Made by a program: the position numbers. From assembly GCF_011045215.1 (NCBI RefSeq), contig NZ_CP049201.1: a stretch of DNA of 64,000 nucleotides; one strand, 5' to 3'. This DNA is from Escherichia coli. GTDB lineage: Bacteria > Pseudomonadota > Gammaproteobacteria > Enterobacterales > Enterobacteriaceae. Position 1 is the stretch's first letter. Each line of letters opens with the position of its first letter. This document shows positions 45,001 to 51,000 of this stretch, piece by piece.

Positions 45001-48000
45001 ACCGGCAATCAGCTGATTCTGGTTATTCAGATACAGCACCCGGAATTCTTCACGCTCCAGTCCCGCCATGTTCAGAATCAGCCATTCCCGTGCCGCATGC
45101 GTGGAGGTGAAGGCCACGCCGGGTTCATGAAGATGGCGGTCCAGGGTTTTCAGGGCCCGCTGAATGAGACTGCGCTCGCCGGGCGTCATCTCTCCGGGCA
45201 GAAAGGAAAGCTGTTGCATTGCCCCTGCCTCCATTCAGTCGATGATGCGCATAATGGCGCTGCATTCCGGATGTTGCAGGGCGTAATCCCGCAACCGATA
45301 ATAATGGACCGTCATGGCATAACACTCCGTACGACAGGCATGATGACTGTACGTCATCAGACAGGCGGCAATGCCGGCGGCTTCCGGACTCATTTCAGCG
45401 CGGTTACCGTTCATGGCATTGAACAGTACCCATGTTTCGTCATCATCGTCATCCGGTTCGGGTGCCATAAATGCCCCGCCGTTGTTCAGGGTGTACAGAT
45501 TCCAGATACCACCGCAGTAGTCTTCGCACAGACGGTCCATCCAGCCGAAGACACGGGGTTCCAGGGTCACCCACTGTGGAATGAGGCCAAAGTGCTGCGG
45601 CCAGAAGCTGATGCGCTGTTCATCAGGGACGGGAGTGGCAACCAACTGAGACTGGTTATTCCCTGATGCAGTAGTTACGGAAACAGAAGGTGTGGTGGAG
45701 CTATGCGAAAAGGTTGTCATGAGATGATTCCTTATAAAAAGTAAATGAATGGAAGAATGCCTGGGGATTGGTACAGACGTGAGTCAGGGCTGCACTTTCA
45801 GGGAAACAGCATTAGCGCATGCTCTCCAGCAGCGTTTCTGCCATCACCCACAATGCGCGATTGAGCTTAATGTCCGTGTCGATGCTGTGAATGGCACGGG
45901 TGTGGATACGTTTTCCTTTAGCGCTGCGACCGGAAATTCCGCCTTTCAGCATATTCTCCTGAATGGTCTGATAAGCACTCCACAGGTCCTTACCGTAATC
46001 CTCCCTGCGTCGTGGTGTCAGAATGTCGGCGGTGGTGACGGGCTGATGTTCGTCACCATAACGGTAAGTCAGTGCCGCCTGTGCCAGCGCCTGGTGTGCC
46101 GGTGGCGGCAGAATCAGCGACTGCATGGCATCACGCTTTTCCTCAATCCGGTCAAAAACCCCCACCACCTCGTAAGCCCCTTCAATAACTTTCTCCACCA
46201 CATTTCCCCGGTGTGGAACACGCAATTCTCCCAGAGACTGACCGCAGACCAGTCCATTGGTACAAATGGCACGAAAATATCCGGGTAACATCTGGTAGCT
46301 GGATGAACCGTCATGGGAGTTGAGCAGAATAATTTCAGGGACATGCTGACCGGTTATCTGTCCGGCCCGCCGTAGACGCAGCATGTGTTTTGTGTATTCC
46401 CGGCGGCTCTGGTCGCGCACGCGGGTCTGGCAGGCAAAGAACGGCTGAAAGCCTTCCTTCTGCAGACTTTCCAGCACGGTGATGGTGGGGATCCAGGTAT
46501 AGTTCTCGCTTCTGGATGTGTGCTTATCTTCCCCGAATACGCTGGGAACGACCTGTATCAGTTCTTCGCGAGTTAAGGGGCGATCACGGCGTATCTGGTT
46601 TGCATAACCAAAACGACTTGCTAATCGCATGATTTGCTCCTTATGAATGAGTTAGCGATATAAATGAAAAAGCCGCGTCTTGCGGAGAAGACGCGGCCTG
46701 ATGGGTGAAATGAATGACGTTTATTGTCTGAGAAACCCTTCACTGGCGAGCCACACATTAAGCTGTTTTCCGGCGTCAGACTCAAAATTCCAGCACCGCC
46801 AGCGTAGCTGCCCTTCAGCATTACGGATAACCCGCCGGAAATGCGTTCCCTGGTCATTTTCGATAAACACATTGCAGTAAGCTGTTGTGATGGTAAGTGC
46901 CTGTTCGCGAGAGAAGGACTTTCGGGTAGTAAACGGGACATATGTTTTGCAGAAGAAATCAGAGAAAAACGCCACCAGTACGGTGGCGCCAGTAATGAAA
47001 TAAATACAAGGATATATTACTGAGGTGAGTTATCCCGGGGACGGGAGTCAGGCTCACCATAAATTATCCGGTGTTTTGCCAGCGATTCCGGCATGGTATT
47101 AATACAGTAATTGATGTAGAAAATGTGAAATAAAAATGTCCATACCGGATTCATTTTTAATTCAAAGCGGAACTGTGTCAGCGCATATTGTTGCAGAGCC
47201 GTTCTGGCTCTGAAAGCCCAGATGATGGTGAGGATAATCCAGACCAGTGAGATCAGCGTGGCAATGCCGTACATGGTTTCAGCACCGCGGCTGTAACCAT
47301 AGACGTCACCGTATTCGTCGATCTGAACCGGAAAAGCCATTTTCAGCATGGCGGATATTCCCAGGCATACTGCCATCCAGATAATCATTGCAGGAGAGGA
47401 GAATCGCTGACGGGTTTCATCCATGATGGTATCCTGATATTTATACAGCCACATCAGTGGATAAACACCATATGTGGCGGCTCCCAGTAATACCAGATGC
47501 CATGTGGATGTATTCAGTTTTTCTTTTAACGATGAAATAGTGGAATCATTCATCACGGTTTCCTTATCATTAATTACGTGTGTGGAATTTTCAGAAATAA
47601 AATATTGTGTTGTTTTTAGCGGACTGCTTCTCCTCTCACAGTGTAACCTTCAATAAAATTAGCCATATCCTCGTTGTCTTTGTGGCTGTTGTCAGGGAAC
47701 TGCTCAATGGCGAACAATTCAGAGAAAGTATTTCTGCAGTTCAGGGTGGCAATCCGGGTTCCCTGGTTAAACACGAGAATGCCATCAAATGCCGGTGTTT
47801 CTCCGTCGTAGCGCTGCACAACCACATAGTCGTATGAACCTTTATGAAAACGCAGATATTTCAGTTTTCCTTTACCCCGGTTAAGATCGCGCCAGTAATG
47901 AAAGGCACTGACGCCAAACATACCTTCTTTTAATTCCAGCTCCAGCGTGCCGTCTTTTTTGAGAAGGTGGTAGGTGTAGGGAAAACCATCCTGTGCAAGA

Positions 48001-51000
48001 ACAGACAGAGCCTTACCGTTTGTGAGCGTACAGTCTGCCAGTGCTGTCGCCGGGATCGCAGATTGCGAATCAGGTGCTGCTGGCCTGGCTTTTTCCGGTT
48101 CAGGGGGATTTTGCTCCCCGGACCCGGTATCGGTTTTCCCGGGAGAAGTGACGGTGGCATCGTAAGCCGGCGTCTGAATACGTGTATCCGGTGGATTGTT
48201 ATCGGCGTCATTAAAACGCTTTGTCGTTGATGAATAGCCTGCCTGTTCGTTGGTGTAGCCGCCTGTAGGCATCCGTGATTTCTTACGCCATTCTCCATTC
48301 ACTTTTTCATACCCGGATTCTGTCATCATCCGTTCCTGCAGACTGGTGATTTCTGTTTCAGGGGAGTGCGGTTGCCTGTCCCCGGAATACAGAAACTCGT
48401 CCAGTGTCATCTTTTTGTTCTTCCGGGTATCCGTGTGGATGAGAGATTTCGGAATAAATGTCTTACAGGCTTCGGTGAAGTTACCTTTACGGAAAGTGGC
48501 CGTTTTCCCTTCAATGGTAACGGTTGCTCCCATGAAGTGTGTGAAAGCCGGTATGGCACGGGCTGCCATATCCGGCGCTGCACGGGGGGTATCCCCCAGC
48601 GTCACCATTCTGCGAAATCCCGTGGCGCTGTTACATACCATGAGAGATTTCCAGGTCTGGTCGTTGATTCTGGTAGTGATAAAGCGGGTTCCCGGAAAAT
48701 CGAGATTATCCGGACATCCCTTGTCCATGCTCATAAAAACCATACCTTCATCAGAAATGAGGGCAGTTTCATTTCCTTCACTACTGATGGCCTGGCATGC
48801 GCCGTTTCTGATTTCCCAGTTGTCGGTAAAATAGTCGCAACCGGTAAGAACGGATATTGCCGAAGCTATCATCAGGGAATGACGTAATACCCGCATGTTC
48901 AGTTTTTTGTTCAGCATATTGTCTCCATACCTGTCGGAACGGCTTTGGCAGGCCGGCGATCACAGGTTAAAGGTGTTGATAAGTTTATGGATGAAAGGGA
49001 AATGTGGCAGAGCGGAGATAAAACGCTCTTCAGCGACCAGACTGTGGATGTGGTCTCTCCGTTCAAACCGTTCTGATGTCAGGCTGACCGATTTGATGTC
49101 TGCCAGGGGAAAGACCCGCAGTTTTTCCTTCTGTAACGCGATCAGATACCAGCTTCCGCTGTAATAAATGAGCCGGCAGGGTTCCAGTGACGGATACCAT
49201 TGCTCAGTCACCAGCGAGATGTGGATGCACTGTCTTATTGCCAGGATGAGTTGCGAGAAACACTCGGGGAGTGTTGCAGTGATATCCGGCGCCGGTAGCC
49301 AGATAAGGCAGGGAGAGGGCTCCTGGTTGTCGGTAAGACAGGTTATCAGTCGTCCGTTCCGGAGCGGAAGTATCCGTGCGATCCCCGTATTCTGTATAAA
49401 TGAAAGCATTTCAGGGAGCGCGCCCGGGTTGCTCTGCCGTCTGAGACTGTACCGGCCATTTCTGTACTCTAAGTCCAGGTGAACCAGACGCTGATGAAAA
49501 TCGCGCTGTAAGGTACGTTCTGTAACACCAAATTCATCTGACAGTGTTTTTAGTGACAGAGATTCTCCGGCCATCAGTCGGCTGATAATGAGTGATAAGC
49601 GAACCGCCAGGCGATCATGCCGGGAACGATTATCAGACATAGATGTGTACTCCGTAAGAAAACATCTTTTATTTCATGATGTTATTATGCATCATGATGT
49701 TGAAAGGATGTGTCGTATCCGAATCATCAGGAATAAAATGCAGCAGAAAAAATATTCCTTTAATTATCTGATTTTTAAGCAGGGTCTCATAAAAAGAAGA
49801 ATGCTTGTTAATCCAGCGACACATCCTGTCGGCGTGAGTGTGTCAGAACAGACGATCCCACAGTGTGACCAGCAGGTGGATAATGCGGTCCCGGGCCTTA
49901 CGCAGAAGCTGTAACATCCAGGCCGGAAAGCTGAACCGGGCAACGGTGTCGTCAAAGCTTTTCCCGATGGCGTCACCAAAAGTTTGTTGTGCGTGTTTCC
50001 GGGTCTGTTCAGAGCGGTTTTCCCTCCGGATATGTGAATAAACCGCGCTGGTTGCCTGTGGTGGCAGTGCGTGGATCATCAGCGATACCAGTGCCGGAAG
50101 ATTCCAGCCGACAGGTGCAGCAACGGAGAGTACCGGAAATGATGAAGGGAACAGGGTTGCCACCCGGGCTGTTACTGTTGCCAGTGAGAGTTCCTGCTGA
50201 CGGGACGGGCATTTTTCTGTGTCGTTCCATTCTTCAGCAGGAAACACGCGATCGGCATGGCTGAGAACAAACAGAAAACGCGAGGGATCTGCACCTTCAT
50301 TCAGTAAAAACTGATGCATGGCAATATCAGCAGCATACGCACGTTCATCACTCCGCAGGATCCAGATAATCAGATCCAGTTCCGGTAGCAGCTGACGATA
50401 AAGTGTCCGGTATTCCTGATCATGCTGCGGTGTTTCACCAATGCCGGGCAGATCGACCAGCGTCATTCTGTGTTCACCGAGCTGCAGGGTAAGACGATGA
50501 GCCTGGCGGGTGCAGCCGTTCAGAGGATGTGTGGCGCAGATACGGGACTGAAAAATGGCATTACACAGACTGCTTTTGCCTGTGCCGGATTTACCCATAA
50601 TGCCAATCACGGGCTCGTAATGAATAACACCGTGGAGATGTTCAAGGATTTTCTGGCGAATTTCTTCAGGAAGAAACGTCAGATATGATTTCACTTGTGC
50701 GGAGAGGGAAGAATGGCTGAATGACATACCGTTATCCTGTTGATTTCGCTGAACCGGATCACACTAATCCGGTTTATCATTCATGTAATATGGACGTGAA
50801 AAATGATGGAATGTCTGAATTACGGACATGATTGTTAAAGTGTAATGGAGTATGAAGTGAGTTTTTCCGAACGGGAACTAATGACATACTGCGGTTTCAG
50901 GAGATGAGAGGATGACCGGACGTAAAAACAAATGTGTCAGAAAAAATTGTAACAATCAGGTTTTCTCAGTAAAAATGGCAGTGGAGAAAAGACTGTGCAG

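Follow-up and report, generated by a model that had tools for sequence, protein, structure and literature searches.

In Escherichia coli K-12, the CP4-57 island carries the cassette yfjR-ypjK-yfjS-yfjT, in which a regulator gene precedes genes for a small membrane protein, an inner-membrane lipoprotein with Asp at position +2 (YfjS, LSAC-D) and periplasmic protein(s). The related CP4-44 island encodes another envelope protein, YeeR, 5′ of a RadC/DUF987/CbeA/CbtA block. As functional analogues only, TrbK of RP4, which acts in entry exclusion, and Ltp of Streptococcus phage TP-J34, which acts in superinfection exclusion, are lipoproteins on the outer face of the cytoplasmic membrane. Here we analysed two adjacent genes, for a 433-amino-acid (aa) lipoprotein and a small membrane protein of the DUF4234 family, in a 64,000-nucleotide (nt) stretch of E. 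coli DNA (RefSeq assembly GCF_011045215.1, contig NZ_CP049201.1; hereafter, the window). We found that both genes are intact and that, because the regulator upstream of them is a YfjR homologue, they occupy the place of ypjK-yfjS-yfjT. The explanation that fits the data best overall, to which we give about an even chance, is that the two genes belong to one cassette and that their products would form a joint barrier at the inner membrane and periplasm.

The window and K-12 cassettes share an island family, a homologous regulator, a GACA-N5-TGTC site and a similar type of cargo. However, the K-12 cargo proteins are not homologous to the window pair, and the window lipoprotein is three times longer and has two domains. 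The K-12 cassette follows the DUF932 gene yfjQ, whereas the window cassette precedes a DUF932 gene. YeeR, by contrast with the window lipoprotein, is a single 510-aa protein that is not a lipoprotein and has no sequence or profile similarity to either product of the pair. Any likeness of the window lipoprotein to TrbK and Ltp would lie in its being encoded by a mobile element and tethered to a membrane, with a recognition part carried on a flexible tether.

Two separate, intact genes

An earlier note on this DNA had placed a 433-aa lipoprotein about 60 nt before a 179-aa membrane protein on one strand. The sizes, coordinates and spacing were confirmed, and the strand is minus:

47616-48917, minus strand: lipoprotein open reading frame (ORF), 433 aa from an ATG, with GGAG 5 nt 5′ of the ATG (48923-48926).
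47557-47615, minus strand: intergenic spacer with no terminator-like site; its ribosome-binding site (RBS), AAGGA at 47561-47565, lies 7 nt before the ATG at 47553.
47017-47556, minus strand: membrane-protein ORF, 179 aa from a GTG.
47017-47553, minus strand: predicted small polytopic inner-membrane protein of the DUF4234 type, 178 aa from the ATG at 47553 (PF14018, 24.4 bits).

The ATG at 47553 is the RefSeq/PGAP start, and the AAGGA is better spaced for it than for the GTG. The spacer measures 59 nt (62 nt to the ATG), contains stop codons in the lipoprotein frame and ranges from 26 to 119 nt in other lineages. In RefSeq, the lipoprotein is WP_047628211.1 ("hypothetical protein") and the membrane protein is WP_047628209.1 ("DUF4234 domain-containing protein"). 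The same DNA is present at 97.7-99.1% identity in 17 of 5,426 complete E. coli genomes, with two coding sequences annotated each time, and a more sensitive search added 10 E. coli genomes whose copies share 72-75% nucleotide identity and likewise keep the two genes separate. In all 27 carrier genomes of this species, both genes are separate and intact. The ratio of nonsynonymous to synonymous substitution rates (dN/dS) for the lipoprotein was 0.16 and 0.33 when the window was compared with two E. coli copies, and the membrane protein has an identical sequence in copies whose DNA differs by 1-2%. Both genes are under purifying selection. Given the conserved order of the homologues, the low lipoprotein dN/dS, the unchanged membrane protein and the RefSeq annotation, the ORFs are real genes rather than chance ORFs.

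The earlier note had offered two possibilities, independent genes or a single longer YeeR-like membrane lipoprotein that a frameshift or nonsense mutation had split into two halves. The membrane-protein reading frame continues without a stop for about 30 codons 5′ of the start codon, reaching into the last ~8 codons of the lipoprotein ORF, where a single frameshift could in principle fuse the ORFs; however, the databases contained no such product. Among 5.8 billion clustered proteins, 14 clusters are related to the lipoprotein, with full-length members of 410-440 aa, and 55 to the membrane protein. Members of the latter measure 152-195 aa, apart from fragments and a single 295-aa protein, the N-terminal extension of which shows no relation to the lipoprotein. 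When 1.84 billion representatives were searched by profile, further lipoprotein relatives of 377-494 aa and single-domain proteins were returned, none of them of ~610 aa. Across these 14 and 55 clusters and 52 profile hits (~120 relatives), no fused homologue was found, and the longest protein on the lipoprotein side has 494 aa.

Similarity to YeeR was also absent. BLASTP of both proteins against K-12 YeeR, YfjS, YfjT, YpjK and YfjW (YfjR and these five were taken from NC_000913) gave no match (expect value, E>0.05); the best E value, 0.056, came from a 12-residue hydrophobic stretch. E values against YeeR (b2001) were 4.6 for the lipoprotein and 1.3 for the membrane protein, and the E value against YfjT was 1.5, with hidden Markov models of the lipoprotein domains giving 0.45-0.65 against YfjT. 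Profile comparison with hhalign gave the lipoprotein family probabilities of 0.4% against YeeR, 6% against YfjS and 0.3% against YfjT; the DUF4234 family scored 0.6% against YeeR and 0.1% against YpjK. The 6% alignment with YfjS spans no more than the signal peptide and lipobox. In Pfam, PF20494 (YfjS_YafY) does not match the 433-aa protein, whereas K-12 YfjS itself matches this model at 1.4e-68. As a positive control, a 156-aa protein of a Klebsiella plasmid matched YfjT at 4e-52. The link to YfjS-type proteins is thus positional only.

Each gene also has its own RBS, and the two remain separate, with differing spacer lengths, in the 27 E. coli genomes and in four diverged island lineages, with purifying selection acting on both. 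Because the genes are separate and intact across islands and no fused homologue was found, the combination that had been set beforehand to decide the question, we rejected the split gene, which we now regard as extremely improbable. Of the two possibilities, independent genes is the one borne out.

Predicted architecture of the lipoprotein

We consider it very probable that the pair encodes a lipoprotein and a small membrane protein with the anatomy described here. Residue conservation in the lipoprotein was taken from 13 aligned homologues, and an AlphaFold (AF2) model was built from a 34-sequence alignment; model confidence is given as the predicted local distance difference test (pLDDT). 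From the N terminus, the parts are:

48837-48917, minus strand: signal peptide and lipobox (aa 1-27); L24, G26, C27, D28, Y29 and F30 are invariant in 13 family members.
48423-48836, minus strand: N-domain (aa 28-165), beta-rich, with four invariant cysteines (41, 68, 95 and 151); AF2 pLDDT ~78-96.
48273-48359, minus strand: conserved helix and beta-hairpin (aa 187-215), motif Q-x3-M-x4-GYEK-x2-GEWRKKSR.
48048-48272, minus strand: disordered linker rich in Pro, Thr, Ala and Ser (aa 216-290, 75 aa); pLDDT mostly <50, ~65 at the C-terminal end.
47628-48047, minus strand: C-domain (aa 291-430), nine-stranded and all-beta with a C-terminal helix; C296 and C394 conserved; pLDDT ~82-98.

The protein starts MLNKKLNMRVLRHSLMIASAISVLTGC-DYF, with the n-region MLNKKLNMRVLR, and its signal reads MLNKKLNMRVLRHSLMIASAISV-LTGC27. 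It has the features that define bacterial lipoproteins, namely a positive n-region, a hydrophobic core and a lipobox of the form [LVI][ASTVI][GAS]C, and its n-region, core and lipobox L-T-G-C27 are invariant across the family. It is thus predicted to be a textbook substrate of signal peptidase II. D28, the Asp at +2, is invariant in the close family; Asp is also found at this position in the distant lipobox-bearing relatives P0074-P0076, the exception being relative P0071, which has Gly. In E. coli, Asp at +2 of the lipidated cysteine leads to Lol avoidance and retention in the inner membrane. Because C27-D28 is invariant, the Lol-avoidance rule predicts the same retention here, and the lipoprotein should reside on the periplasmic face of the inner membrane.

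The even number of conserved cysteines in each domain (four in the N-domain, two in the C-domain), together with the confident all-beta models, points to periplasmic domains in which the cysteine pairs are predicted to be oxidised. In the segment between them, the model places a helix at 187-200 and strands at 203-206 and 209-212, and Q194, M198, G202, Y203, E204, G208, E209, W210, K212 and K213 are invariant. The linker is only 21-33% identical between lineages, and some relatives carry an inserted ~80-aa domain there. Internal duplication was considered and rejected, the N- and C-domains being unrelated (hhalign, 0.6%). Each domain is also found alone as a secreted protein; the N-domain occurs alone or with a different C terminus in secreted proteins of 183-335 aa.

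The lipoprotein had no match in Pfam, NCBIfam, PADLOC or PHROGs, and stand-alone relatives of its domains had none in Pfam. Sequence searches of the PDB with the profiles of both families, lipoprotein and DUF4234, were likewise negative. The nearest PDB folds, none of them close, include Bartonella IalB (3dtd), Vibrio ToxS/VtrC, PliC and the type VI secretion immunity protein BtaiB, all small periplasmic beta-barrel proteins to which the lipoprotein bears a weak likeness. Among viral structures in BFVD, four uncharacterised ~150-aa proteins of phiKZ-like jumbo phages (EL, PhiEaH1, RisingSun and Miami; Q2Z179, W8D0I6, A0A223LHQ6 and A0A873WG98) matched one lipoprotein domain with E values of 1e-5 to 1e-4 and TM-scores of ~0.5-0.6. 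A tblastn search with the lipoprotein found no match in 50,697 phage or 72,556 plasmid records.

The DUF4234 membrane protein

The 178-aa protein aligns with 68 of the 70 positions of PF14018 over residues 17-122 and scores 24.4 bits (cut-off 25.3; E 3.2e-5). Many of its homologues pass the threshold, and the 97%-identical P0016 carries a precomputed PF14018 match. Two segments, 54-74 and 94-114, are strongly hydrophobic (mean Kyte-Doolittle 1.8-2.15), and two aromatic-rich segments, 18-37 (1.04) and 135-153 (0.64), are weaker. The four helices proposed in the earlier note are therefore plausible, with two of them well supported by hydrophobicity, but not secure, because the other two segments are weak. 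Invariant residues are G29, Y31, W35, C63, G65, W112, F114, A116, Y123, N135 and, in the last hydrophobic segment, Y146-I-x-Y-C150-x-N152. Compared with PF14018 at large, the window protein represents a separate, well-conserved subfamily of ~175 aa, set apart by two additional segments of weak hydrophobicity and by the invariant YINYCIN motif; the enterobacterial copies of this subfamily have an acidic loop insertion.

DUF4234 homologues are present in 20 plasmids (13 from Klebsiella, most of ~210-370 kb), the inspected copy being of type IncFIB/IncHI1B. They also occur in a Klebsiella chromosomal island, in Luteimonas, in Vibrio islands adjoining an integrase gene and, at 33-35% identity, in seven Aeromonas jumbo-phage records, including MK838116.1 (L021 3992-4450), MN159079.1 and MN102098.2. 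Both halves of the pair thus have jumbo-phage relatives, DUF4234 by sequence and one lipoprotein domain by fold. Neither protein of the pair matched PADLOC-DB 2.0 (E 0.1 or below) or PHROGs. The literature gave no function for DUF4234, its only mention being a table entry, and in work on DUF4234, YfjR/YfjS, YpjK/YfjT and the island gene set we found nothing on a lipoprotein-DUF4234 pair.

A YfjR-type regulator and its candidate control sites

Upstream of the pair lies a gene for a regulator with a helix-turn-helix (HTH) motif and a WYL domain. The gene and the candidate control sites around the cassette are:

49818-49830, minus strand: candidate operator site 1, the palindrome GACAGGATGTGTC (GACA-N5-TGTC), 178 nt 5′ of the regulator ATG.
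49702-49714, minus strand: candidate operator site 2, a degenerate copy, GACACATCCTTTC, overlapping the -35 position.
49684-49691, minus strand: extended -10-like box TGCATAAT, 44 nt 5′ of the regulator ATG, conserved in 5/6 upstream regions.
49674-49697, minus strand: window-specific perfect inverted repeat TCATGATG-N8-CATCATGA, surrounding the -10-like box.
48960-49640, minus strand: HTH-WYL regulator, 226 aa, YfjR homologue (WYL 27.5 bits, cut-off 21.8; HTH_11 6.6e-5).
46968-46990, minus strand: terminator-like hairpin with a 10-bp stem, 6 GC pairs and a T tract, starting 27 nt past the stop of the membrane gene; a consensus match only.

The regulator is 42% identical to K-12 YfjR over 226 aa (E 7e-51). 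It also matches PADLOC WYL models (2.6e-19), the only one of the three cassette proteins to match PADLOC, which lists WYL regulators as defence-associated. We aligned the upstream regions of YfjR-type genes from the window, three other islands (L005, L006 and L017), K-12 yfjR (L004 8488-8703) and a Klebsiella plasmid (L020). The half-sites of site 1 are invariant in all six. Site 2 takes the canonical form GACATAACCTGTC in L005 and L017, keeps its half-sites in L006 and the plasmid and is truncated in K-12. GACA-N5-TGTC and TGCATAAT may therefore constitute the YfjR operator and promoter, for which we found no description in the literature searched. The inverted repeat TCATGATG-N8-CATCATGA was rejected as a general operator, as it is not conserved. 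A further exact GACA-N5-TGTC lies inside the lipoprotein gene at 48713-48725, ~200 nt after the start codon; exact copies number two in the 64-kb window against about one expected by chance, and for this reason we left this palindrome uninterpreted.

A gap of 42 nt, which contains no terminator-like site, separates the regulator gene from the lipoprotein gene on its 3′ side. From the short gaps, the RBS before each gene and the position of the first terminator-like site, which comes only after the membrane gene, the regulator, lipoprotein and DUF4234 genes are probably co-transcribed as a three-gene cassette. The hairpin shares sequence with the GTG start codon (46975) of the next ORF, DUF905; instead of terminating fully, it may lower transcription by attenuation or mask the translation of DUF905. 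In K-12, YfjR is reported to target its own operon in genomic SELEX (gSELEX; PMC8249747), and autorepression of the three-gene cassette is a reasonable inference.

Linkage of the pair in a mosaic island slot

The pair sits in a variable slot between a YfjP-like GTPase gene and the DUF905 and DUF932 genes:

49843-50727, minus strand: YfjP-like GTPase gene.
46721-46975, minus strand: DUF905 gene.
45812-46630, minus strand: DUF932 gene.

Along the minus strand, the order is GTPase, WYL regulator, lipoprotein, DUF4234, DUF905, DUF932 and then, by Pfam matches and ORF order, antirestriction, RadC, DUF987, CbeA, CbtA, DUF5983 and DUF4942 genes, followed by AbiEii. The set of genes from the GTPase and DUF932 to DUF4942 identifies the island as integrative and of the CP4-57/CP4-44 type.

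The order of lipoprotein and then DUF4234 is kept in Citrobacter (L005), E. coli (L006 and L007), metagenomes (L008 and L009) and L017. Identity to the window lipoprotein is 53, 49, 38 and 35% in L005, L006, L008 and L017, respectively; in the same lineages it is 62-68% for DUF4234 and 74-76% for DUF932, which makes the lipoprotein the fastest-evolving gene of the module. L008 has no WYL gene, yet the pair is kept. The 229-aa gene before the L008 lipoprotein (7275-7964) was considered as a swapped regulator and rejected: it encodes a secreted N-domain paralogue with a different C-terminal domain, which is also present in P0100, P0101, P0111 and P0118. Because it precedes the lipoprotein, paralogues can stand in tandem in the slot.

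It is somewhat doubtful, though a serious alternative, that the two proteins are functionally independent cargo whose adjacency reflects common descent of the cassette in a recombination-prone slot. The contents of the slot are indeed a mosaic: DUF4234 alone, EcsC-like with DUF4234, YfjT with DUF4234, a lipoprotein relative with EcsC-like, the N-domain alone, the C-domain alone, and ypjK-yfjS-yfjT in K-12. A stand-alone N-domain protein lies directly between GTPase and DUF932 in the same island family, and a stand-alone C-domain protein lies 3′ of the GTPase in an island without DUF932. DUF4234 also stands alone in Vibrio islands and jumbo phages. By contrast, every full-length lipobox-bearing relative that we examined has DUF4234 immediately 3′, down to 35% identity and despite turnover of the upstream genes, and the spacers are short and have no terminators.

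A plasmid copy of the island block is carried by Klebsiella pneumoniae pRWS291.s3 (IncFIB/IncHI1B; L020 3117-5510). It contains, in order, a WYL gene (43% identical to YfjR), genes for an 88-aa lipoprotein, a 103-aa membrane protein and a YfjT homologue (46% identity, E 4e-52), and then DUF4234, DUF905 and DUF932. Proteins of the K-12 yfjR operon and DUF4234 are thus linked in one cassette.

An EcsC-like protein (PF12787, sub-threshold) was observed at L017 8224-8943, L018 7364-8035, L010 4796-5560 and L016 3451-4323. The gene order is EcsC-like then DUF4234 in the Klebsiella island (L010); lipoprotein, DUF4234, then EcsC-like in L017; a relative without a lipobox, then EcsC-like in L018; and DUF4234, a 101-aa gene, then EcsC-like in Luteimonas. 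As EcsC-like genes recur beside DUF4234 or a lipoprotein relative, including in the distant Luteimonas, the EcsC-like protein may be a more general DUF4234 partner. The window has no EcsC-like gene.

Possible functions of the pair

The joint barrier that we favour would work as follows. The WYL repressor of the three-gene cassette would set the expression of the pair. The lipoprotein would be anchored in the inner membrane on its periplasmic side, with the C-domain swinging on the ~75-residue tether, and the DUF4234 protein would form a conserved core in the same membrane. Specificity determinants are expected to diverge fast. The modular lipoprotein may be the ligand-recognising part, because it is the fastest-evolving member of the module and its domains are shuffled within the island slot. 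Together, the two proteins would block entry or action via the periplasm, whether of phage DNA during injection, of conjugative transfer or of a periplasm-acting toxin. We counted in favour of such a barrier the confinement of the genes to mobile elements, the fast evolution of the lipoprotein beside a conserved partner, the defence association of WYL regulators, the presence of DUF4234 on islands, plasmids and jumbo phages and the fold matches to jumbo-phage proteins.

Several points weigh against this proposal. The pair is not obligatory: the lipoprotein does not accompany DUF4234 in the Klebsiella island, in Vibrio, Luteimonas or phages, or in plasmids that carry a YfjT homologue, and a lipoprotein relative that lacks the lipobox adjoins an EcsC-like gene instead. 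Neither protein is homologous to catalogued defence or exclusion proteins in PADLOC or PHROGs, and the fold matches are weak. The positive-inside counts are ambiguous about the topology of the DUF4234 protein, and the end of the operon is uncertain because the hairpin overlaps the DUF905 start codon. Chromatin immunoprecipitation with exonuclease treatment (ChIP-exo) found no DNA binding for K-12 YfjR (PMC8464067). Joint action of the two proteins, with an exclusion or protection function at the envelope, is thus a tentative proposal that we regard as possible rather than probable. The fullest version, in which the pair would be an undescribed two-component barrier of CP4-57-type islands, with a DUF4234 core that IncHI-type plasmids and jumbo phages also carry and a diversifying lipoprotein made of two new domain families, and would block phage genome entry, conjugative entry or a periplasm-acting toxin under WYL sensor-repressor control, is unlikely.

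A small polytopic membrane protein under a WYL-type regulator could also be a toxin. According to this explanation, the pair would be a membrane toxin with its modulator, an abortive-infection or addiction system in which DUF4234 damages the membrane once de-repressed and the lipoprotein restrains or triggers it. Toxin-antitoxin modules abound in the island (CbtA/CbeA and AbiEii), and phages and plasmids carry DUF4234. However, DUF4234 stands alone in several contexts with no obvious antidote, comparison with PADLOC and PHROGs revealed no likeness to known holins or Abi proteins, and the DUF4234 protein sequence is highly conserved, in stable chromosomal copies. We consider a toxin quite improbable.

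Alternatively, the pair might be a module for envelope physiology or adhesion, in biofilm formation or stress adaptation, with no role in conflict. The literature links K-12 YfjR and its operon to biofilm formation, albeit with no validation, and among the nearest PDB folds are the periplasmic beta-barrels IalB, ToxS and VtrC, proteins that act in signalling or ligand binding. Such a module appears decidedly unlikely. The earlier note had called the pair a surface or envelope-modifying cargo unit; predicted location and linkage agree with envelope cargo, but nothing in the data indicates modification of the surface. On the whole, the pair is largely ordinary island cargo.

Other features of the island and window

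The end of the island nearest the type II secretion operon carries a toxin gene:

40551-41498, minus strand: AbiEii-family nucleotidyltransferase toxin gene.

In E. coli C5, the island has AbiEii and DUF6088 at this position, whereas strain CFIAFB20180511 has ParDE there; toxin-antitoxin modules are thus exchanged at this end of the island. Next to the island lie the type II secretion genes gspL and gspM, identified by their Pfam matches, which end at 40196. The type II secretion operon lies within 23528-40196 on the plus strand and is preceded by a 1,525-aa ORF of SslE/YghJ size. In matching E. coli genomes, the same island arm adjoins cadC. The 64-kb window yielded no tRNA gene, which would put an attachment-site tRNA outside it, and the window contains no transfer apparatus of the island's own.

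In the closest E. coli record (L001), the DUF905 annotation carries a frameshift. A divergent 376-aa ORF with a Cys/His-rich N terminus (50912-52042, plus strand) adjoins the GTPase gene; it matched nothing in Pfam, PADLOC or PHROGs, and E. coli annotation lists it as hypothetical. In the island in which the N-domain stands alone (L024 690-4278), genes for an OLD-TOPRIM ATPase and a UvrD helicase, a Gabija-like architecture, lie immediately 5′ of the GTPase gene, and the same two genes are present in L010.

Implications

Both proteins have RefSeq entries, one as a hypothetical protein and the other as a DUF4234 protein, and islands of this family are familiar. The new findings are modest, namely that the pair is a conserved but rare cassette, present in 0.5% of complete E. 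coli genomes; that two undescribed domain families, native to the island slot, make up the lipoprotein; that the window cassette is a non-homologous variant of the K-12 yfjR-ypjK-yfjS-yfjT arrangement; and that YfjR-type genes appear, from their aligned upstream regions, to share a conserved candidate operator. As a matter of annotation, the locus contains two intact genes and not a pseudogene, and they are unrelated to YeeR, YfjS and YfjT. More broadly, in an island family that is very common in E. coli, envelope proteins make up a mosaic in the slot around the YfjR-type regulator. Two periplasmic domain families without a Pfam model appear to be confined to this slot, and DUF4234 is shared with plasmids and jumbo phages. 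If the pair does act as an exclusion or protection module, this would provide the first function for DUF4234, together with a function for yfjR-type cassettes.

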